Source of the DNA: a virus
Strand: one strand, 5' to 3'
DNA: 64,000 nucleotides
IMG/VR virus record: IMGVR_UViG_3300027985_000286
Location: 64,001 to 128,000 of that record
Both the position numbers and the translations under genes were made by a program. Positions 4,992 through 57,383 of this stretch are shown in pieces. The notes under the pieces were generated by a model. That model saw only the letters and a program-made list of their open reading frames with translations, did no database searches and was not told the origin of the DNA. The number at the start of each line of letters is the position of its first letter. The stretch's first letter is position 1.

Positions 4992-6503
4992 GTGGCAAAA
5001 AGTGTAACTCTGTCAAAACTGATTGCCCAGCAAGTACCAGGGCACGTTAGAAAGAACTACGATACGTTCGTCAAGTTCTTAGAGTATTACTACGAGTGGC
5101 TTGAGCAGAAATACGGTCCCACTGACGTTATCAGAAATTGGGAGACGTACGGATCTGTTGACTCTGATGTAGACGAGTTTGTCAACGAGTTCAAGAGCGA
5201 AACGCTCTACTCTTTGCCTCTGAGTATCGTGGGTGATAAGAGACGACTTCTTCTACATGCTCGCGAGTTTCTCAAAACTAAGGGCACAGAAAGATCATTT
5301 AAGTTCCTTTTTCGTATCCTGTTCAATGAAGATGTTGATCTGTACTTGCCCAAAGAGAACATCTTCCGTCTGTCTGATGGTGACTGGGTCAAGAACGATA
5401 ATGTGATTGTAGCTACCTCTATTAACGACCCGTCCACGTTCCTGTATAAGAGAATTAAGCAGGTGCGTGTGATTAACGAGTTCCTCACAGAGGAAGCATC
5501 AGCTCTAGTTATCAAAGCTGAAAGGTATCGCAGGGACAAGATTGTCAGAAATAGGTTCTTTGTTTCTGATGTGCGAGGTGTATTCAAAGATACACATCCT
5601 GTCTTTCTAGAATCTGATGAAGGAACGTACGAGTATCTTTACCCTATTGTGACTAGCGTCGATATTACTACTGCAGGGACAGGTTACATCAAAGGGGATA
5701 CTATCAGCTTAGACGGGACAGCGCAGTGGGTTGTATCAGGAACGCTGAACATTGCTAAGATTTTTGATACAAAGGTCACCTCTCTTCTAGCTGCATCTGA
5801 TATTGTTGTCAAAGTCAATACTGTGACAACAACCAGCTTCACGTTCGATGGTAGATACATCACATTAAGCTCTTACGCTGAAGGCGACGATGTTGAGGTG
5901 CTGTTTCCTTCTGTTACTGGTTACGTTGAGGTTGATGGTGTTGACTCTACGGGTGGCATTGTTCAAACACGAATCTATGACTTCCCTATTGGGTACCCAA
6001 CGTCACCCACCTACTCAATTACATCTAGAACTGGTTCTGGCGCTGTCTTACAGGTGAACGTGGGTACAGTAGGGTATGTGGCTGGGTACTACATTGGCAG
6101 CAAAGGAATGCCGTCTTCAACCAATTTCTTGCAAGACAGTCTGTATTACCAGGAATACTCCTACGTCATACGAGCATCCAGGTCAGTTGACACCTACGCA
6201 AGCATCGTAAAGCAACTATTGCATCCTGCTGGTATGATGATGTTTGGTGAGATTAGCATCCTGTCTCTTATTTCAATGATTATTCGAGACATGAAGAGTT
6301 ACGTCGATGTGGTTGTACTGTACGGTTCGTATGTACTGGTTACATCAGAAGCCTTGCACAGCAGGGTGATGACATACGATAAGCATAAAACTGCAGTAGA
6401 CCTTGATGTAAATACATACGAAAACTTTACCATACAGTCCGTCTTGAATAACTACAGAACGAAATGGGATTATGGACTCCCAGTAACAGTTACTATCCAA
6501 TAA
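4992..6503 (+). CDS. gp7: Baseplate wedge protein gp7-like
   Basis: FVKFLEYYYEW, KTKGTERSFKFLFRILFNE, LQDSLYYQEYSYVIR, KQLLHPAG. Confidence 0.85.
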   Translation: MAKSVTLSKLIAQQVPGHVRKNYDTFVKFLEYYYEWLEQKYGPTDVIRNWETYGSVDSDVDEFVNEFKSETLYSLPLSIVGDKRRLLLHAREFLKTKGTERSFKFLFRILFNEDVDLYLPKENIFRLSDGDWVKNDNVIVATSINDPSTFLYKRIKQVRVINEFLTEEASALVIKAERYRRDKIVRNRFFVSDVRGVFKDTHPVFLESDEGTYEYLYPIVTSVDITTAGTGYIKGDTISLDGTAQWVVSGTLNIAKIFDTKVTSLLAASDIVVKVNTVTTTSFTFDGRYITLSSYAEGDDVEVLFPSVTGYVEVDGVDSTGGIVQTRIYDFPIGYPTSPTYSITSRTGSGAVLQVNVGTVGYVAGYYIGSKGMPSSTNFLQDSLYYQEYSYVIRASRSVDTYASIVKQLLHPAGMMMFGEISILSLISMIIRDMKSYVDVVVLYGSYVLVTSEALHSRVMTYDKHKTAVDLDVNTYENFTIQSVLNNYRTKWDYGLPVTVTIQ

Positions 6504-17697: not shown

Positions 17698-18331
17698 CTC
17701 CTACTTCAACTTCTATACCCCTACCAACGAGCAGGACTTGCAGGACTCCCTTGTGATCGAAGCCATCCAAATTCGAGGCTTTGATGCACAGTACATTCCG
17801 CGAGATTCTGTGAACACTGACTATCTTACCGGCGATAGTCCTGGCGAGTTCTATGATGTTGCGTTTCCTGTTGAAATGTACCTAGAGTCTGTTGATAGTT
17901 TTGGTGGTGATACAATGATGATGTCGAAGTTTGGTCTGCATATCGAAGACACCGCAACCTTGGTGGTTTCCAAGACTAGGTTTAAGGTAGAGGGTGCGAA
18001 GCTGACTCCTGCTATCGAGTATCCTAAGATCGGAGACCTACTCTACCTTCCTTTCTCAAAGTCGATTGTAGAGATTGAACACGTACCAACAGAAGAGCCG
18101 TTTTACCAGCTTGGACGGAACTATGTCTACAAGCTCAAGGTAAGAGCGTTTACGTTTACGCACCAAGATTTTGCTACTGGTATTGCTGACGTTGACACGT
18201 TTGCCACAGGGGTTGACCTAGACGGTGATCTTCTCCTGGCAAATGATACGTTCGGTGACAATATCGAAGCTGACACAGAGGTCGAGGCTGGAATCATAGA
18301 CCTCTCGAAAGACAACCCGTTTGTGAGGTAA
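17687..18331 (+). CDS. gp14: Neck protein gp14
   Basis: NSYF, EQDLQDSLVIEAIQIRG..YIPR, SKFGL.I.D, P.IGDLLY.P, PFYQLG; ATG at 17687. Confidence 0.95.
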   Translation: MTVNSYFNFYTPTNEQDLQDSLVIEAIQIRGFDAQYIPRDSVNTDYLTGDSPGEFYDVAFPVEMYLESVDSFGGDTMMMSKFGLHIEDTATLVVSKTRFKVEGAKLTPAIEYPKIGDLLYLPFSKSIVEIEHVPTEEPFYQLGRNYVYKLKVRAFTFTHQDFATGIADVDTFATGVDLDGDLLLANDTFGDNIEADTEVEAGIIDLSKDNPFVR

Positions 18332-29162: not shown

Positions 29163-29222
29163 ACATTGCTCCTCCAATTAGTAGCGCAAACACGTTAGCA
29201 CAAAAATAAATCAGAATAAACC

Positions 29223-29250
29223 TTGTATCTTTGATATGTTCGTGTATACT
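29223..29250 (+). promoter_or_regulatory. Sigma70-like early promoter followed by an AACAACATACA leader
   Basis: TTGTAT-N16-TATACT; the same leader follows the promoters at 34322 and 36479. Confidence 0.6.
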
Positions 29251-29296
29251 AACAACATACAAACAACACAGCACAACTTGAAGATAGGACTACACA

Positions 29297-29551
29297 ATGG
29301 CACGTAACAAAATCGCATCACCTCAGCGTGTAAAGTCTGTAATCAAAGAGCTGGTAGAATCTGGGTTTGAGTTTGTAGAATGGACCGAAGATAGTCCTTA
29401 CGACTCTCCCAAAGTTCGCGTTAAAAAGAATGACATAACGTGGAGCGTGGCTATTGAAAAGGGTACCGTGCAAGCTCTTAGGATGAGCGACTGGTCTTGG
29501 GGCAAAAGCCATACCAACGTAATCGATATGATTGAAGAAATGGGGAGATAA
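29297..29551 (+). CDS. Hypothetical early protein
   Basis: AGGA RBS, downstream of early promoter. Confidence 0.75.
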   Translation: MARNKIASPQRVKSVIKELVESGFEFVEWTEDSPYDSPKVRVKKNDITWSVAIEKGTVQALRMSDWSWGKSHTNVIDMIEEMGR

Positions 29552-30261: not shown

Positions 30262-30311
30262 TTGCGGAGTCCTTTGCTTAAATAGAGTTGTTCTAGCAAA
30301 GGACTCCGCAA
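30262..30311 (+). promoter_or_regulatory. 17-bp perfect hairpin sequestering the gp3 RBS, with late promoter TAAATA in the loop
   Basis: TTGCGGAGTCCTTTGCT (30262-30278) / AGCAAAGGACTCCGCAA (30295-30311); TAAATA at 30279-30284. Confidence 0.85.
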
Positions 30312-30855: not shown

Positions 30856-31308
30856 ATGATGACAACCGACTCGTTGTTCGACAAGAAGTTTGATGATCTT
30901 AAGAAAGAAGCCAACAATGACGTTAAGATCAACGTTGCAGACCTTGGAAGGTCTGCATCAGAAAATCCTAAACTGTACGTCAAGTACCTTGACAAGCTTT
31001 CAACAGAGGTTGTCCAACTCGATAAGCTAGAAAGAGAAAAGGCAAGGTTGTACAAGTCAAGATGGTCTTACTATATGGGTCATGCACCTGAGGAAGAGTA
31101 CAAGAAGAGTCCATTAAGAGAGAAGATACAGAAGGCAGACATAAATAAATACATTGACGCCGACCCTTTGATGCTAGAGATGAGCGCGCGCATCGACAGG
31201 CAGAAGGTGCTCGTAAGATACCTAGAAGATGTAATCAAAGCTATCAAAGATCGACAATTTTCCATCAAAGCTGCCATTGACTGGCAAAAATTCCAAAGCG
31301 GGGCATGA
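30856..31308 (+). CDS. uvsY: Recombination mediator UvsY
   Basis: NPKLY.KYL, YY.G.A..EEY, YIDAD, I.DRQFSIK.AIDW.KF.SG. Confidence 0.92.
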   Translation: MMTTDSLFDKKFDDLKKEANNDVKINVADLGRSASENPKLYVKYLDKLSTEVVQLDKLEREKARLYKSRWSYYMGHAPEEEYKKSPLREKIQKADINKYIDADPLMLEMSARIDRQKVLVRYLEDVIKAIKDRQFSIKAAIDWQKFQSGA

Positions 31309-31309
31309 C

Positions 31310-31498
31310 ATGAAATCATTCAAAGAATTCGTCAACGAAGCCAAGTATCAGGCATATGGTCCGTTCAAGACCAAAGAAGAAGCTATAGCAGATGCCAAAG
31401 AAGAGATTGGCGGTGGAACTCAAGGAAAGAACTTTTTCATCGAAAAGGAGAAAGATGGTTTCTACTGGTCAGAAACCAAGAAAGATGGGTCGATTTAA
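31310..31498 (+). CDS. Putative internal head protein (N-terminus MKSFKEFVNE)
   Basis: N-terminus resembles the T4 internal-protein capsid-targeting sequence (MKTYQEFIAE type). Confidence 0.6.
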   Translation: MKSFKEFVNEAKYQAYGPFKTKEEAIADAKEEIGGGTQGKNFFIEKEKDGFYWSETKKDGSI

Positions 31499-31926
31499 CC
31501 CCATCTTTCTTTAGCAGCAGCGAAAGCAGCCTTATCGGCAATTTCGTTGAAATGATCGCCGTTGTGACCGCGTACCCAGTTCCATTTGACCTTGTGCCTC
31601 TGCGATGCGGCTATTAGCCGCTTCCAGAGGTCTGGGTTCTTCACGTTCACAAAATTCTTTCTTTGCCACCCAAGAACCCATTTCGTCATTCCGTTGACAA
31701 CGTACTGGCTGTCAGAAACAATCTCAACTTCGCAGGGGTACGGTAATGCCTCTAAAGCAGAAATTGGACCCATCAACTCCATACGATTATTGGTAGACTG
31801 AGCATCGTCACTGGCACCAGTCAAAACCTTGTAGTTTCCACTCTCGAGAATGACAACTGCAGCCCATCCACCAGGGCCTGGATTCTTACGAGTACTGCCG
31901 TCAGTGTAAATCTTTATCTTGCGCAT
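31495..31926 (-). CDS. rnhA: Ribonuclease HI
   Basis: IYTDGS..NPGPGGW, TNNRMEL, SDSQYV, VKNPDLW, WVRGHNG..FNE.AD. Confidence 0.96.
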   Translation of the reverse strand: MRKIKIYTDGSTRKNPGPGGWAAVVILESGNYKVLTGASDDAQSTNNRMELMGPISALEALPYPCEVEIVSDSQYVVNGMTKWVLGWQRKNFVNVKNPDLWKRLIAASQRHKVKWNWVRGHNGDHFNEIADKAAFAAAKERWG

Positions 31927-32289: not shown

Positions 32290-33840
32290 ATGAGCGCAGA
32301 CATCAAGGTAATCAAAGAGGACGAGTCAACCTTAATTGTTGTGCCTAACGAGGCGCACATAATCGAGGAACTCTCTGATTACTTTGAGATTGAAAAGGAG
32401 AATTCGGTATACCAGAGAAGAAACCGTAAAGGTTGGGATGGTATAACGCGCCTTTACAGTAAGGCATCTGGAAGGCTCCCTGCTGGTCTCTTCCATCACC
32501 TTAAAAAATTCGCTTATGACTTCCAATACACCATGGATGTTGAAGAGTCAATCGACTCGAAGTTAGATATCAATAGAGAAGACTACGTTAAGTTCGTAAA
32601 TGAGGATATCTGCCCCTACTCTAAGGGAAATCCAATCAAGCCGTACGAGTACCAGCTCTACGCTGCCTACTACGCTCTAAAGAATAAGAGAGGTACTTTG
32701 CTTGCCGCCACGTCAGCAGGGAAGAGCCTTATAATTTACATCATCAGCAGAATTATGGAACTAAGTGATGAGAAAGGAGTAGGTAAGCGCATCCTTATCA
32801 CAGTACCCACAACGTCTCTGGTTGAGCAGCTCTACAATGACTTTGTTGACTACGCTAACAACCACAAGAAGGACTGGGTAGTTGGTAACCACGTCCAAAA
32901 GATATCAGGGCAGTATGAGAAAACTGTAAACAGAAACATTGTGATTTCGACATGGCAGTCTGCAATCAAGCTCTACAACTTGAACCAGTTTGGTGTCTGG
33001 ATCAACGATGAGACCCACAACGGTAAATCCTCATCAATCAAAGAGATTGGCAAGAACCTATCTGAGTGCGCGTTCAGGGTTGGCCTTACAGGAACACTTG
33101 ACGGAGTAGAACTACACAGCCTAGAGATACAAGGCGTTTTCGGTCCGGTGAAACAGATTGTGAAAGCAAAAGAGCTTCAAGATATGGGTAGAGCAGCAGA
33201 GACTAAGGTGTTTGGTATCCTTCTTGAGCACCCAGAGTCTGCCAAACGGTTGCTAAGAAACCTCCAAAACGAGGATAAGAAGGTCAAAGGCAGTAAATCT
33301 AACCCTTACGAGATTGAGATGCAGTACCTTATGTCATGCCCTCTAAGAAACGACTACTTAACCAGACTTGCGTCCGAGCTGAAAGGGAACACAGTGTTCC
33401 TAACTGGTAGAATTGATGCACACTTGAAACCACTAGAAGAGAAGTTCAAAGAAGCAACAGACAAGCCAATATTCGTTATTCACGGTGGCGTAGGTGCAGA
33501 CGAGCGAGAAGTCATCCGAAACATCCTAGAGACCCACGATAACGCTATCATCCTTGCTTCTTACGGAACTATGAGTACTGGTGTTAGTGTCAAGAACCTG
33601 CACAATTTGGTATTTGCATACCCACTGAAGGCTAGAATCAAGATCTTGCAGTCAGTAGGAAGAATGATGCGGATGCACACATCTAAGAGCCACGCTAAAA
33701 TCATAGATATTGGTGATAACTTGAAGCTGGGTGGTAAAGCAAATCACACCATGGAGCATATGAGAAAAAGATTTGAACACTACATCAGCGAAGGATGGAA
33801 GATCAAGTTTCTTCAAGTACCGTTAACAAATAAGGGATGA
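32290..33840 (+). CDS. uvsW: SF2 RNA-DNA/DNA helicase UvsW
   Basis: WDGITRLY, YQ..A, TSAGKSLIIY, VPTTSLVEQ, DETH, GLTGTL, SYGTMSTG.S.KNLH, LQSVGR. Confidence 0.96.
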   Translation: MSADIKVIKEDESTLIVVPNEAHIIEELSDYFEIEKENSVYQRRNRKGWDGITRLYSKASGRLPAGLFHHLKKFAYDFQYTMDVEESIDSKLDINREDYVKFVNEDICPYSKGNPIKPYEYQLYAAYYALKNKRGTLLAATSAGKSLIIYIISRIMELSDEKGVGKRILITVPTTSLVEQLYNDFVDYANNHKKDWVVGNHVQKISGQYEKTVNRNIVISTWQSAIKLYNLNQFGVWINDETHNGKSSSIKEIGKNLSECAFRVGLTGTLDGVELHSLEIQGVFGPVKQIVKAKELQDMGRAAETKVFGILLEHPESAKRLLRNLQNEDKKVKGSKSNPYEIEMQYLMSCPLRNDYLTRLASELKGNTVFLTGRIDAHLKPLEEKFKEATDKPIFVIHGGVGADEREVIRNILETHDNAIILASYGTMSTGVSVKNLHNLVFAYPLKARIKILQSVGRMMRMHTSKSHAKIIDIGDNLKLGGKANHTMEHMRKRFEHYISEGWKIKFLQVPLTNKG

Positions 33841-34270
33841 ACTGAAGTAGCAACAGAGTTCAGGGATGATTCAAAAAGTCATAGGTCCCCTAAAGCGACT
33901 ATCCAAAACATCATTGCCCGTAGCCATACGGTTTTTGGTTTTGGGTTACACTAACTGAGTTCAGTACACGACCCCTTCAGTCAGAACGTGAGCATGACCA
34001 TAAAGGTGAGTAGGCGGTCAGCCTGTACCTACTTCTTACCTTGCTGTTGTCTGAGTGTTAACACTCACTGACGGTTTGTATCACTGCAGGATGCTCACGT
34101 TCCAACTATCCTGCAGTTCGGGTAACCCCGATCATTTGTTTCTCGGCTGTTTGCTTTAAGGTGCCTGAGTGCTTGTTAGTACAATGAGGTACCACACTCC
34201 CTAGGGCTACTCTCCAAGCCACAATGTTGCTGTGCCACTGCTTGGAGGGTCACCAGGTATAGTCAACCTG
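33840..34270 (-). ncRNA. Candidate ~430-nt structured non-coding RNA of unknown class
   Basis: No credible ORF; about ten consecutive stems plus a 12-nt long-range complement; minus-strand promoter TTTACA-N17-TACAAT immediately upstream. Confidence 0.62.
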
Positions 34271-34276
34271 CCTTGC

Positions 34277-34305
34277 ATTGTATATAGCGTTTTGTGTTTT
34301 GTAAA
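34277..34305 (-). promoter_or_regulatory. Sigma70-like promoter pointing into the structured non-coding region
   Basis: Minus strand TTTACA (34305-34300), N17, TACAAT (34282-34277). Confidence 0.65.
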
Positions 34306-34321
34306 GATGCGAGAAGATGTC

Positions 34322-34350
34322 TTGCTATTCTTAATCAATGGTGCTATGTT
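34322..34350 (+). promoter_or_regulatory. Early sigma70-like promoter, divergent from the ncRNA promoter
   Basis: TTGCTA-N17-TATGTT with TG extended -10, followed by TACAACATACA. Confidence 0.7.
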
Positions 34351-34383
34351 TACAACATACAAAACGTGATGAGAGACAATACA

Positions 34384-34920
34384 ATGACAAACCCAATCGT
34401 AGAAGCCGTAAGTCCTCTCAAGAACAGTGCAATGGACCGCGCTGAACAGCATGCCAACTCGTTGATCAATCGTGTGAAGAAAGAACTCGAGATTGGTGGG
34501 TGGGACCTTAATGCGGTCGCTCCTTACCCCAGAGCATGGGGGGCTAGCAAGAAAAGTTACGCAGAGGCGCGGAGCCGGAACGCAATGTTTTGGGCGTTGG
34601 TTGTACCTGCAGGAGAGCAAGCTTCACGTATAACTGGCAAGCCGTATATTGTGAAGTTGAGCGACACTAAAATCCAGAAGTTTGTTGATTCTGCTCGCAA
34701 AGATGCAGCTGAGCAGTATGACTCCTTCGTGGCCAAGCTTGTGTCGAAGATCGGTGAGGTGGAAAAGGCTTCGTTGATCGGAGACCATGTGTGGTCTCAT
34801 TCAATCTTAGTTGTCTCCAAGAGGGACGGTTCGGTTGAGCGTTGGAAGACCCAGATGATCATTAACGTGTCCAAGCTGGGCAATCTCTTCAATCAGTGGC
34901 CTACTCGTAAGGTCAAGTGA
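34384..34920 (+). CDS. Hypothetical early protein
   Basis: ATG 34384 follows the early leader; C-terminal W.TQMIINVSKLG.LFNQWPTRK. Confidence 0.75.
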   Translation: MTNPIVEAVSPLKNSAMDRAEQHANSLINRVKKELEIGGWDLNAVAPYPRAWGASKKSYAEARSRNAMFWALVVPAGEQASRITGKPYIVKLSDTKIQKFVDSARKDAAEQYDSFVAKLVSKIGEVEKASLIGDHVWSHSILVVSKRDGSVERWKTQMIINVSKLGNLFNQWPTRKVK

Positions 34921-34933
34921 GGAGGGCTAGACT

Positions 34934-35311
34934 ATGGCAAGGCGCAGGTCGGTAAACGTGCATTCTTGGGAGTACATCACCAAAGGCGCAACAGAACCGC
35001 ACGTGAGATGGACTAACTCTGAGCTCGCCAAGTTTCACTACATGAACAAGAACGGTGTTTACTTTGAGCACCGTCGGATGGTTCATTTAGTCGGTATGGC
35101 AGTGAAAGCTGGATTCATAAGAAGCGGTTGGTACTTGGCATATTGTATGAGTACCCAACCTGATACCCTGAGCAAGTACGCAAGGATGAAAAAGGTAAAG
35201 GCAACCTCTCTGCACGTCACTGTTCAAATGATAAAGGAAAACACCGCCAAGGCTCTTTCGAGGTTACAAGAAGAAGGTTTCGATATCAACCAAGAGGTAC
35301 CCAACCTGTGA
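34934..35311 (+). CDS. Hypothetical protein
   Basis: GAGGAGGG RBS. Confidence 0.7.
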   Translation: MARRRSVNVHSWEYITKGATEPHVRWTNSELAKFHYMNKNGVYFEHRRMVHLVGMAVKAGFIRSGWYLAYCMSTQPDTLSKYARMKKVKATSLHVTVQMIKENTAKALSRLQEEGFDINQEVPNL

Positions 35312-35317
35312 GGTCTT

Positions 35318-35467
35318 ATGGTACTGTATAACTGTATGCAAGAGGCGTGGATTGATACTGATGACGATACGTTCAATGTAGACATGACGCCGTCTATGAA
35401 TGTCCGTGATGAGGACCTAGAGTTTTGCGATCAGGCTGCTTTCTGGGTATGGTATAACGGTGAGTAG
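35318..35467 (+). CDS. Small acidic hypothetical protein (49 aa; not in ORF track)
   Basis: GAGGT RBS then ATG; fills the gap between neighbours. Confidence 0.5.
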   Translation: MVLYNCMQEAWIDTDDDTFNVDMTPSMNVRDEDLEFCDQAAFWVWYNGE

Positions 35468-35504
35468 GTTAAATACACTAGTCCCTTTTCAGAGTATACC
35501 CGCA

Positions 35505-35741
35505 ATGAGCAAGTTCACAAAGTACCTTTCTGAGTCTGCAGTGAGAGTCAACGCTGACGCCTTGGCTCTCGTTATCTCTAACACTGGAAATATTCCCAAA
35601 GGCACTGCGTTGGCATTGGCCAAGCAGATCGCGATTAGGGTGGAAGGTGGGAGAGCATGGGAGCGTCAGGTTCTCAACAACGTCGACGATAACCCAGACA
35701 AGGTTATAGCTCAGATCAAAGCAATTCTGGCCAAACCTTGA
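35505..35741 (+). CDS. Putative internal head protein (N-terminus MSKFTKYLSE)
   Basis: CTS-like N-terminus; TAAATA at 35470. Confidence 0.55.
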   Translation: MSKFTKYLSESAVRVNADALALVISNTGNIPKGTALALAKQIAIRVEGGRAWERQVLNNVDDNPDKVIAQIKAILAKP

Positions 35742-36160
35742 ACATACAACAAGTCTTAGAGCATGTAAACCAAAAGTATCAACCTGGCCCAGTCTATCAG
35801 TACGTAGAGGACCAGGTTGACTACTGGCAGTCACCAGACGAGTTTGAGGAAAGCAAGGCCGGGGATTGCGAGGATTTCGCCATTGCCAAGTTTTTTGCCT
35901 TGAAGGGTGTGGTAAAGGACAAAGGAAAGCTAAGCCTAGCCCATGTATCTCTAGCGAACGGTCAACAGCATATGGTCTGCATGTACGGTGACATGGTGCT
36001 AGACATACGCACTTCTCTTGTAGTCGATATCAAGCACCGTCCTGATATAGCCCAGCTCATCTACAAGTTCAACGAAGACAGTCTCACGATAGGGACCACT
36101 GTTATGAAAGGTGTTCCTAATATCAAGCCTTGGAAGGAAGTTCTTGCACGTATGAGTTAG
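35738..36160 (+). CDS. Transglutaminase-like cysteine protease (BTLCP / peptidase C93, LapG-like)
   Basis: DYWQSP.EF....GDCEDFAIAKFF.L, H(MV), VLD: Cys-His-Asp triad motifs. Confidence 0.82.
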   Translation: MNIQQVLEHVNQKYQPGPVYQYVEDQVDYWQSPDEFEESKAGDCEDFAIAKFFALKGVVKDKGKLSLAHVSLANGQQHMVCMYGDMVLDIRTSLVVDIKHRPDIAQLIYKFNEDSLTIGTTVMKGVPNIKPWKEVLARMS

Positions 36161-36264
36161 ACGTGTTAGCTTGTAAAGATACTTAGAGGATTAAAGCTTA
36201 AACCCAAGACGAGTTTTAGATTTGGTACAACAGTTGATTACATCATACTCAGGGAGGATATACA

Positions 36265-36474
36265 ATGGCTAAGATTATCGTTCTTAAGGAAATTGAGGTC
36301 CCTGAGGGTGACTACTGCTTTCTCAATAATAGGCCTGAAATCTGTATCAACCTCGACCCTTATACCCTGAATTGGGTAGAACCTCAGTGCGACCACGGGT
36401 TTTGTTGCCTTGAAAAGGATGAGGTAGGACTGAAGAAGTCACCCGAATGTAAGAAACTCCGTGTTTTGAAGTGA
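36265..36474 (+). CDS. Cys-rich GDYC-family small protein (paralog 1)
   Basis: EVPEGDYC..C..C.HGF..KK.PEC.KL. Confidence 0.7.
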   Translation: MAKIIVLKEIEVPEGDYCFLNNRPEICINLDPYTLNWVEPQCDHGFCCLEKDEVGLKKSPECKKLRVLK

Positions 36475-36478
36475 GTTG

Positions 36479-36507
36479 TTGCGTTTCTTCGTCAACGGTG
36501 CTAGAGT
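36479..36507 (+). promoter_or_regulatory. Early sigma70-like promoter
   Basis: TTGCGT-N17-TAGAGT, TG extension, AACAACATACA leader. Confidence 0.7.
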
Positions 36508-36542
36508 AACAACATACAGAAGCACTTGATGAGGACTAGACA

Positions 36543-37703
36543 ATGAAGCAGACCTTCAAAGTTCCTACCAGCAAGATGGATTGGGTCAAGGCCAGGGTTG
36601 CCAAGCTCAATAAGCGCGCTTCAAAGCACAGTTTGCCTGGTCTTTACCTGACAGTGACGGGGACTCACGTTGAGCGCATAGTAGCTGACCCTTCTGACCC
36701 GCATAGTCAAAAGATCTGGGTAGAGTACACTGATTACACCGTAGAAGGTGAAACTCCTATCATCAAGGGTTGGGAGTTTATTGGGCGTATTGACCACGTT
36801 GATGGTCATAACATTACGCTCAGTGTACCTGGTTGCGATACCCAAATACCCGATGAGTTCAAAGATAGAGCTCCGTTTTGCGACCATTGCCGGACGCACC
36901 GTCTTAAGAAGAAGTCGTACATCATTACAAGAGACGGAGAGTTCATGCAAATTGGCTCTGCGTGCTTGAAAGAATTCTTCGATCGTCCTGTGGAGCAGCA
37001 GGTTCACAGGATGTCGGTGTTTGATGACATCGACCAGATGAATCAGAGCTGGGGGTTCAATGACTTCCGCCAGCCTTTGATGACCTCACTTGCGGTTGCG
37101 GCTGCGTCTATTCGGCAGTTTGGGTTCCAGAAGTCAGATTCTGAGAATCCAACCAAGCAGGACGTTATCACGTGGTTTAGCAGGGTTGGATGGCAGCATA
37201 AGGAACACCTCAAGCCTACTGTCAATGACCGCCGCATTGCTCGCAAGACTGTAAAGTGGGTGCGTCAGCAGAAAGCTAACAGCGAATTCATGCAGAACCT
37301 GCAAGCGTTTACGACTATGCGGTATGTGGACTTGAAGTACGCTGGGTTCCTTGCTGCTGCGGTTAACTCGTTCCTGCGGTCTGAGGCAGAGAAGAAAGAA
37401 AAAGAGGTTGTTGACAGTCATTGGGTTGGCAACATCAAGCAGCGCCTGGATCTGGATCTCACTTTGCAGCGAATGATTATCCGTGAGAACGAAGGTCACT
37501 ATGCTTACGCCTACGTTCCTAACTATACCTACATCCACATCTGGGTAGACGATGATGGAAATCGTTTCGTGTGGTTCGGTTCCAAGATCATTAGTGACGT
37601 GCCTGGAGAGCGTGTTAGCGTAAGGGGTACCGTTAAGGATCATAGTGAGTACAAGGGAATCAAGAATACGGTGCTTACCAGGGTTGTTGCCAAAGGGGCA
37701 TAA
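36543..37703 (+). CDS. Conserved phage protein with a Zn-binding CDHC..C motif and a C-terminal OB-fold-like domain
   Basis: GWEF.GRIDH, CDHC...R, QIGSACL; C-terminal DDDGN.FVW..S, V.GTVKDH.EY.GIK.T.LTR. Confidence 0.7.
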   Translation: MKQTFKVPTSKMDWVKARVAKLNKRASKHSLPGLYLTVTGTHVERIVADPSDPHSQKIWVEYTDYTVEGETPIIKGWEFIGRIDHVDGHNITLSVPGCDTQIPDEFKDRAPFCDHCRTHRLKKKSYIITRDGEFMQIGSACLKEFFDRPVEQQVHRMSVFDDIDQMNQSWGFNDFRQPLMTSLAVAAASIRQFGFQKSDSENPTKQDVITWFSRVGWQHKEHLKPTVNDRRIARKTVKWVRQQKANSEFMQNLQAFTTMRYVDLKYAGFLAAAVNSFLRSEAEKKEKEVVDSHWVGNIKQRLDLDLTLQRMIIRENEGHYAYAYVPNYTYIHIWVDDDGNRFVWFGSKIISDVPGERVSVRGTVKDHSEYKGIKNTVLTRVVAKGA

Positions 37704-55982: not shown

Positions 55983-57383
55983 ATGCGCGTTAATCCTATT
56001 CTTAATACTGATAGTTACAAGTACAGCCACTACCTGCAATATCCGCCAAGAACCCAGTACGTTACTTCGTACATCGAAGCCAGAGGGTCTTACGACCCTG
56101 ACTATAACGAAACTGTTTTCTTCGGATTGCAAGCATTCCTTATGGAATACATGATGCAACCGATCACTATGTTTGACGTGATGGAAGCCAATTTCATCGT
56201 GTCAGCGCATGGTGAGCCCTTTAACCTGGAAGGTTGGAAGAAGATCGTAAACAAGCACGGCGGTTTCCTCCCTGTCAAGATTGAGGCGGTACCGGAGGGC
56301 ACTGCTGTTCCTCTGCGCAATGTCCTGGTGCAGGTGACCAACACTGATCCAGAACTCCCTTGGGTGACTACCTTTGTTGAGACTGCAATCCTCAGGGCAG
56401 TGTGGTACCCCTCAACCGTGGCCACCATTAGCATGAAGATTCGCAACATGCTCAAAGAGTATGCAGCGAAGTCTGGTTCTGTTGAAGGTGTTGACTTCAA
56501 GCTACACGATTTTGGAGCAAGAGGCGTTTCGTCTAACGAGTCTGCAATGCTCGGAGGCTTGGCCCATCTTGCTACCGGGGCGATGGGGACTGACACCGTC
56601 ATGTCATTGGTCGGTGCTCTGAACTACTATGACCAGCCAGATGCTGGGTTTTCAATTCCAGCAGCAGAGCACAGTACCATCACTTCCTGGGGCCCTGACC
56701 ACGAGATTGATGCGTATCGGAACATGCTCCAGCAGTTCGCCAAGCCTGGGTCCCTTGTAGCGGTTGTTTCTGACTCGTACAATATCTGGAATGCAGTTGA
56801 CAATCTCTGGGGCGAAGAGCTCAAGAAGGATGTCATCAATAGCGGAGCAACTGTTGTTGTTCGCCCAGATAGCGGTGACCCAACTACCGTACCGGTTGAG
56901 GTGATAGAAAGACTGATGCTGAAGTACGGTTATACCGTGAACGAGAAAGGGTACAAGACTCTTCCGAAGTGCATTCGAGTTATCCAAGGTGACGGAATCA
57001 ACAAGGATTCTATCAAGCAAATCCTTGCGAATATGGATGACAAGAAGCTTTCGCTAGACAACATCGCGTTTGGTATGGGTGGTGCGTTGCTCCAGAAGAT
57101 GGACAGAGATACGTTCATGTGGGCAATGAAAGAGAGCAACATTGTCGTTGATGGCAAGTCCCGTGACGTTTTCAAGAGCCCTGTAGGCGACGCAGTGAAG
57201 GCATCCAAACGCGGACGTTTGAAGCTGGTGCGTAACCCTCAGAACAATATGTTCACTACCATGAAGGAGTCTGTTGTGCACTTTGCTGGTGATGTGTCTG
57301 TCATGCGTGATGTCTACGAGGACGGTGTTCTCTACAACAAAACTACACTGAAAGAGGTTCGTGCGACTGCAAATGCTTCTTGA
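55983..57383 (+). CDS. nadV: Nicotinamide phosphoribosyltransferase (NAMPT)
   Basis: TDSYKYSH..QYP, LHDFGARG, SIPAAEHS, VSDSY, VRPDSGDP, IQGDG, FGMGG.LLQ. Confidence 0.96.
   Translation: MRVNPILNTDSYKYSHYLQYPPRTQYVTSYIEARGSYDPDYNETVFFGLQAFLMEYMMQPITMFDVMEANFIVSAHGEPFNLEGWKKIVNKHGGFLPVKIEAVPEGTAVPLRNVLVQVTNTDPELPWVTTFVETAILRAVWYPSTVATISMKIRNMLKEYAAKSGSVEGVDFKLHDFGARGVSSNESAMLGGLAHLATGAMGTDTVMSLVGALNYYDQPDAGFSIPAAEHSTITSWGPDHEIDAYRNMLQQFAKPGSLVAVVSDSYNIWNAVDNLWGEELKKDVINSGATVVVRPDSGDPTTVPVEVIERLMLKYGYTVNEKGYKTLPKCIRVIQGDGINKDSIKQILANMDDKKLSLDNIAFGMGGALLQKMDRDTFMWAMKESNIVVDGKSRDVFKSPVGDAVKASKRGRLKLVRNPQNNMFTTMKESVVHFAGDVSVMRDVYEDGVLYNKTTLKEVRATANAS

Follow-up and report, generated by a model that had tools for sequence, protein, structure and literature searches.

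A partly structured orphan non-coding gap downstream of uvsW in a T4-like phage genome

The window analysed here is a stretch of 64,000 nt, bases 64001-128000 of the 149,348-bp IMG/VR phage record IMGVR_UViG_3300027985_000286, and the phage is T4-like, with the T4-type core genes uvsY, RNase H and UvsW. Between the end of the uvsW helicase gene and the start of the next gene, a member of phrog_4687, lies a gene-free stretch of 543 nt (33841-34383; positions are those of the window unless the genome is named), with plus-strand genes on both sides (Table 1). According to a mechanical six-frame map of open reading frames (ORFs) over the whole genome, no ORF-free stretch of the record is longer than this gap, as a preliminary description of the sequence had claimed. 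The gap is a real orphan non-coding element, partly structured and single-copy, and probably not a large ornate RNA.

Table 1. Positions of the genes and sequence features at the uvsW-phrog_4687 gap (window coordinates, except in the last row)
Feature	Position	Strand	Remarks
uvsY	30856-31308	+	
RNase H (rnh)	31495-31926	-	
uvsW helicase gene	32290-33840	+	Pfam UvsW_N, ResIII, DEAD, Helicase_C; closes the conserved uvsY-rnh-uvsW block
T1, composite hairpin	33901-33946	+	terminator scan; inner stem CCGTA/TACGG (33918-33931), then TTTTTGGTTTTGG
Core structured domain	33975-34120	.	predicted four-way junction closed by P1
P1, long-range helix	33979-33995 with 34091-34107	.	12-bp perfect part
H4, alternative local hairpin	34083-34117	.	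10-bp perfect stem, 15-nt loop; -14.7 kcal/mol plus, -17.7 minus
T2, hairpin	34118-34140	+	terminator scan; TCGGG/CCCGA, then TCATTTGTTTCT; directly 3' of core; -6.3 kcal/mol; pair probability 0.89
Three hairpins	34160-34270	+	34160-34193, 34209-34250, 34254-34270
Sigma-70-like TTTACA-N17-TACAAT	34277-34305	-	10/12 positions; predicted start ~34270
PeSL-like promoter/leader cassette	34301-34396	+	1 of 7 genome copies; nhmmer E 6.6e-16 for this copy
Cassette stem-loop (T3)	34309-34325	+	
Cassette -35, TTGCTA	34322-34327	+	
Cassette -10, TATGTT	34345-34350	+	
Cassette leader, ACAACATACAAA		+	
Cassette Shine-Dalgarno (SD), GAGAGA	34371-34376	+	
Cassette start codon, ATG	34384	+	
phrog_4687 gene	34384-34920	+	PHROGs E 6.7e-53; first gene of hyperplastic region; function unknown
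Other cassette copies, window	29210-29304, 36458-36548	+	
Other cassette copies, genome coordinates	5500-5602, 18174-18277, 144860-144963, 145218-145280	+	

The gap is without coding signal. The codon log-likelihood of its best frame is -73, within the lowest 0.15% of the 460-nt windows of the genome, and Pfam and PHROGs searches of six-frame read-through translations gave nothing above sub-threshold noise. A decayed gene was therefore rejected as its origin, the log-likelihood being strongly negative in every frame and no family being recognised. Neither an internal domain duplication nor a degraded copy of the promoter cassette described below was found within the gap. The T4 late-promoter word TATAAATA does not occur in the window, and the word CTAAATA is not enriched. 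Rfam 15, searched over the whole window at the gathering score, yielded two tRNAs only, at 62.5-63.1 kb; the segment 33600-34600 gave no match even at E<=10 to any family, ROOL, GOLLD, riboswitches and small ribozymes included, and ARAGORN found nothing in the gap region. The earlier statement that no tmRNA, RNase P or group I/II intron is present is borne out by these results.

The preliminary description had presented the region as a candidate RNA of ~430 nt, highly structured, read from the minus strand and comparable to the ROOL and GOLLD RNAs. Its ten stems, together with their inner stems, are all present, each at its exact position, and the 12-nt complementarity of 33984-33995 with 34091-34102 is exact and lengthens to 17 nt at 88%. 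The region is enriched for perfect inverted repeats of at least 8 bp, and in this respect it ranks within the top 1-2.4% of the 465-nt windows of the genome. Perfect stems of 12, 10, 8 and 8 bp are found in it; the joint presence of 12-bp and 10-bp perfect inverted repeats corresponds to the top 1.3% of genome windows, and the half-site GAGTG/CACTC recurs. Across the whole genome, 44 perfect inverted repeats of at least 10 bp (loops of up to 120 nt) were counted, against ~17 expected for random sequence. Several of the genomic repeats outdo those of the gap, with a 20-bp stem at genome position 7190 and stems of 17, 15 and 12 bp at window positions 30262, 26412 and 31478.

Fold z-scores were computed against dinucleotide shuffles, with counts over 200 shuffles for the sub-domains. 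For the entire region, z was -1.37 (minus) and -2.16 (plus), a modest gain over the shuffles. A significant value was reached by the sub-domain 33975-34120 alone, with z -3.50 on the minus strand (1/200 shuffles as good) and -3.31 on the plus strand (0/200). The remaining sub-domains gave -0.08 (minus) and -0.99 (plus) for 33838-33978, -0.90 and -1.59 for 34118-34205, and +0.13 and -1.88 for 34160-34275. When GC-corrected 200-nt windows of the genome were ranked, the core window took rank 20 (minus) and rank 42 (plus) among 1492; the neighbouring windows were ordinary. What the statistics support is therefore a core of some 130-146 nt and not a 430-nt RNA. As a measure of the original proposal, the z-scores favour the core and, on the minus strand, disfavour the left and right thirds. 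Two thirds of the stretch fold no better than shuffles, which restricts the wording "highly structured" to the core and does not support a single ornate RNA of ROOL/GOLLD type. The gap resembles these RNAs in being phage-associated, non-coding and several hundred nucleotides long; it differs from them in having no Rfam match at E<=10, only about one third of its length significantly structured, a supported part of 130-146 nt, and no family.

In the predicted fold, the core is a four-way junction in which P1 encloses two hairpins (34003-34042 and 34052-34067, the latter a 16-nt palindrome) and a small third one. On the minus strand, P1 comprises 17 contiguous base pairs, including two G-U pairs, with a mean pair probability of 0.95; on the plus strand its pair probability is below 0.7 in a 600-nt context. 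The predicted minimum-free-energy fold on either strand prefers P1 over H4. Because the 3' strand of P1 sits in the H4 loop, the two helices would either compete or form an H-type pseudoknot, which agrees with the pseudoknot-or-switch geometry of the preliminary description. The pair P1/H4 can thus be read as either a switch or an H-type pseudoknot.

The right end of the gap is of a different nature. An nhmmer search of the gap against its own genome indicated that 34293-34373 resembles two other places, and the follow-up identified seven copies of a cassette, with E values from 4e-14 to 1e-24. The consensus consists of TTGCAT-N16/17-TATACT, then the conserved leader CAACATACAAAC, then GAAGAGGACTACACAATG. 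One copy, at genome position 145218, retains the leader half alone, and another, at genome position 18174, has a 13-bp stem just upstream. Promoter-early stem-loop (PeSL) cassettes have been described in T4-like phages (Arbiol 2010, PMC2839356; Comeau 2014, PMC4122927), and the architecture given in PMC4122927 matches 34301-34396. Sigma-70-like -35 and -10 elements with a 17-nt spacer are followed by the SD and the start codon of the next gene, a promoter stem-loop and an AT-rich upstream part are present, and conserved copies occur in several places, bordering a variable gene block. The cassette differs from PeSL in its consensus and conserved leader, and in a stem-loop that overlaps the -35 in this copy. 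The AT-rich part, 34276-34383 with 33% GC, is the only one in the gap, and the cassette begins within it. On its sequence features, then, the right end of the gap is an ordinary repeated promoter cassette of PeSL type; the PeSL model covers only the right-hand ~100 nt and leaves out the core.

Terminator-like sites were found to the left of and within this cassette. The scan for hairpins followed by a T-run gave three sites on the plus strand of the 543-nt gap (33918, 34118 and 34309; T1, T2 and T3), where ~0.2 are expected from its shuffles, and the same scan found no site on the minus strand inside the gap. In T1, the inner hairpin has an energy of -5.8 kcal/mol and the composite one of -14.4 on the plus and -13.0 on the minus strand; its plus-strand pair probability is 0.87-0.91, and it may serve the uvsW unit as a weak terminator-like site. 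The 6-bp stem of T3 is more stable on the plus strand (-5.2 kcal/mol) than on the minus strand (-1.2). Among the three hairpins between T2 and the cassette, those at 34160-34193 and 34209-34250 each gain one G-U pair on the plus strand only, and helices of 7 and 11 bp within 34160-34270 have a plus-strand probability of 0.99. The gap is similar to the unit boundaries of phages, where intrinsic terminators or 3'-end stabilising hairpins are found, in that its coding strand has short GC-containing hairpins with T-runs immediately behind a stop codon and ahead of the next promoter. It differs from them in its weak stems (5-6 bp), three over 460 nt, and in the 130-nt multi-branch domain lying between.

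A further pairing was noted on the plus strand, where TGTTTCTC (34137-34144) can pair with GAGAGACA (34371-34378), with a probability of 0.77 in a 600-nt fold. The phrog_4687 gene has its ribosome-binding site in the latter segment, and the pairing would mask this site only in transcripts that read through from uvsW; it would stay unmasked in those started at the cassette promoter. An 8-mer of this kind has a chance probability of roughly 5%.

The signals that bear on which strand is read are mixed. The plus strand must be transcribed, because it encodes both flanking genes and uvsW is not followed by a strong terminator. On this strand only, five helices other than P1 are lengthened, by six G-U extensions in all, and two G-U pairs favour the minus strand. 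Both base skews of the gap, AT and GC, run opposite to those of plus-strand genes; its AT skew of -0.11 falls within the lowest 2.6% of windows from the region of plus-strand genes, and the T-runs of the plus strand account for the reversed AT skew. The same applies to the A-rich linkers ascribed to a minus-strand RNA. They are A-rich on that strand, and they are equally the T-runs of the plus-strand terminator-like hairpins.

The minus-strand promoter put forward in the preliminary description is present, and it matches 10 of 12 consensus positions. The genome has 35 matches of this quality, of which many fall within genes, and ~0.1 would be expected in the gap by chance. The hexamer at its -35 is complementary to TTGTAAA, a word that recurs ahead of the cassette copy at genome position 18174. 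The element TTGTAAA(A)G precedes at least that one other copy, which has no minus-strand -10. Since there are 35 equal matches in the genome and the -35 is shared with this plus-strand cassette element, the site loses its value as independent evidence, and a minus-strand promoter is possible but weakly supported. A convincing minus-strand terminator was not found in the gap; the sole candidate is a 6-bp hairpin of -3.7 kcal/mol that overlaps the uvsW stop codon.

Comparison with relatives places the gap at the edge of a highly variable region. The closest UvsW proteins among 5.8 billion sequences are 71, 66, 62, 58 and 57% identical, followed by others at 46-47%, all of the same length; scans of IMG/VR and of JGI metagenomes gave UvsW relatives of at most 41% identity. 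In the contigs of the relatives, the upstream synteny (uvsY ... rnh, uvsW) is kept and stops at the uvsW stop codon. A Dam-like methylase gene begins 21 nt after uvsW in contig L004, small ORFs and a T5orf172-type gene follow in L006 and L007, and L168 and L170 have yet other genes in this place. A homologue of the phrog_2319 gene (36543-37703 in the window) closes the variable block of L168 and of L006, and the unrelated genes between uvsW and this homologue take up 0.4-1.5 kb. Because the genes enclosed by uvsW and phrog_2319 change from relative to relative, these two are the anchors of a hyperplastic region, 33841-36542, with the gap at its left edge. In this phage, cassette copies stand before the gene that opens the variable block (ATG 34384) and before the phrog_2319 gene at its far end (ATG 36543). 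The phrog_4687 protein has homologues in Erythrobacter phage XM05 and Ackermannviridae, none of them with a large gap ahead of the gene.

No homologue of the gap itself was found by blastn against 50,697 phage records, by nhmmer and tblastx against 170 loci around UvsW relatives, or by BLAST against five related full records. Exact and gapped patterns of the gap retrieved no relative from IMG/VR or GTDB genomes, and a pattern of the cassette leader retrieved no relatives of the lineage from IMG/VR. A covariance model of the core (R1), run against four related full records and 100 loci, gave the self hit and one chance match at E=3.5. None of the relatives reached through UvsW (nearest 71% identical) or through the downstream protein (55%) has the gap.

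Taken as a whole, these observations lead us to prefer, tentatively and with less than even confidence, as the most economical reading that the gap is a composite boundary where one transcription unit of the plus strand ends and the next begins, and at which the conserved uvsY-rnh-uvsW block meets the hyperplastic region. From left to right, it would consist of the 3' untranslated region of uvsW with the weak hairpin and T-run of T1, the orphan core of ~130-146 nt bounded by inverted repeats and directly followed by T2, three more hairpins stable on the plus strand only, and the PeSL-type stem-loop, promoter and leader that start the next gene. The hairpins may end and stabilise uvsW transcripts and insulate the genes driven by the cassette. 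In read-through RNA, the core with its closing helix of 12-17 bp might form a block to exonucleases or a processing site for a double-strand-specific enzyme. The better folding of the plus strand, both overall (-2.16 vs -1.37) and in the right part (-1.88 vs +0.13), is in support of this reading. So are the plus-strand genes on both sides, the three terminator-like sites of the plus strand, the larger number of G-U extensions there, the more stable T3 stem, the lack of coding signal, and the cassette copies of PeSL anatomy at both ends of a block whose content varies among relatives. Several points weigh against it. At -5 to -6 kcal/mol the terminator hairpins are weak, a boundary in a compact genome could do with far less than 460 nt, and the closing helix of the core is better on the minus strand (17 bp, 0.95 vs <0.7). 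Moreover, both base skews are reversed relative to plus-strand genes, the 10/12 minus-strand promoter stands back-to-back with the plus-strand promoter, and the processing and termination steps of the model are predictions. As it stands, the result is a clarifying negative one, in which the proposed 430-nt ornate RNA gives way to weak plus-strand terminators, an orphan core of ~140 nt and a repeated cassette of known type at a hyperplastic region.

Alternatively, the gap could be a non-functional remnant of recombination or cassette exchange in the hyperplastic region, its inverted repeats being incidental or the relics of a lost element; we consider this possible but doubtful. The site belongs to a plasticity zone where relatives have a Dam-like methylase, T5orf172-type genes or ORFans, its sequence is an orphan in all collections searched, and most of it folds like shuffled sequence. 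Decay of this kind is however poorly matched by the absence of leftover coding signal or family match in any frame and of a degraded cassette copy inside the gap. It must also account for the largest non-coding stretch of a compact genome, and for a pair of perfect inverted repeats as rare as the 12-bp and 10-bp ones.

A discrete, stable minus-strand RNA, ~430 nt long or shorter around the core, starting at ~34270 and containing the pseudoknot or switch, appears unlikely; if its transcription ran on, such an RNA might work in trans, or hold uvsW back early as an antisense transcript. Its promoter-like site fits the T4/PST early-promoter consensus TTTACW-N17-TAYWAT (PMC4122927), P1 forms 17 contiguous pairs on the minus strand only, the core reaches z -3.5 there, the base skews are reversed, and H4 and P1 would be sterically compatible with an H-type pseudoknot. 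Against these stand a whole-region z of only -1.37 with -0.08 and +0.13 in the left and right thirds, the lack of a credible terminator (the final hairpin has 6 bp), a promoter of chance-level quality whose -35 complements the element upstream of the cassette, and the failure to find a homologue in any collection searched. The most specific form of this idea seems quite improbable. In it, the core with or without its flanks would be a new orphan phage non-coding RNA, expressed early from the minus-strand promoter, with the H4 loop pairing 95 nt downstream as a pseudoknot or co-transcriptional switch. The transcript would run antisense into the 3' end of uvsW and keep the R-loop-unwinding helicase off during origin-dependent replication. 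If the core is a functional RNA, it would represent a regulatory RNA specific to its lineage, within a group of T4-like phages that is poorly sampled, and its interest would come from its site beside uvsW, whose timing matters for replication.

It is very unlikely that the gap acts at the level of DNA, either as an R-loop replication origin of T4 type (promoter plus unwinding region) or through operator-like palindromes bound by protein. UvsW unwinds R-loops, and the gap lies beside uvsY, RNase H and UvsW in what we take to be a parallel to T4 ori(uvsY), which adjoins uvsY. The likeness to ori(uvsY) or oriF, with a promoter beside uvsY/uvsW whose transcript could persist as an R-loop, is purely positional, whereas a skew signal, a defined unwinding element and homology are missing from the gap. 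The 16-bp perfect palindrome and the recurring GAGTG/CACTC half-site would suit a protein-bound element, but no iterons were found, the GC skew has no inflection at the gap (the switch of the genome lies near 57 kb), and the sole AT-rich part holds the promoter cassette. The mismatches of P1 are compatible with G-U pairing, which speaks for RNA rather than DNA. The core resembles a miniature inverted-repeat transposable element (MITE) in being a unit of ~129 nt bounded by 17-nt terminal inverted repeats; this candidate was rejected, since the core is single-copy in the genome, the pattern of its termini is absent from IMG/VR and GTDB genomes, and its flanks, CTTC on the left and ATCC on the right, contain no visible target-site duplication. 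A retron msr/msd was likewise rejected, for although inverted repeats are present, the neighbours UvsW and phrog_4687 have no reverse transcriptase domain.

Some minor observations concern other parts of the genome. The second-largest ORF-free gap of the record, genome 56611-56963, lies ~7 kb upstream of the window start and coincides with the cumulative GC-skew minimum and a strand switch; divergent sigma-70-like promoters of 10/12 quality are found in it, at 56735 on the plus and 56668 on the minus strand. Within the conserved block upstream of the gap, RNase H is encoded on the minus strand both here and in contigs L004-L007, but the 58% relative L168/L169 has it on the plus strand (L168:3562-3993). 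In this relative, a gene for a ClpP-like protease also sits between uvsY and rnh.

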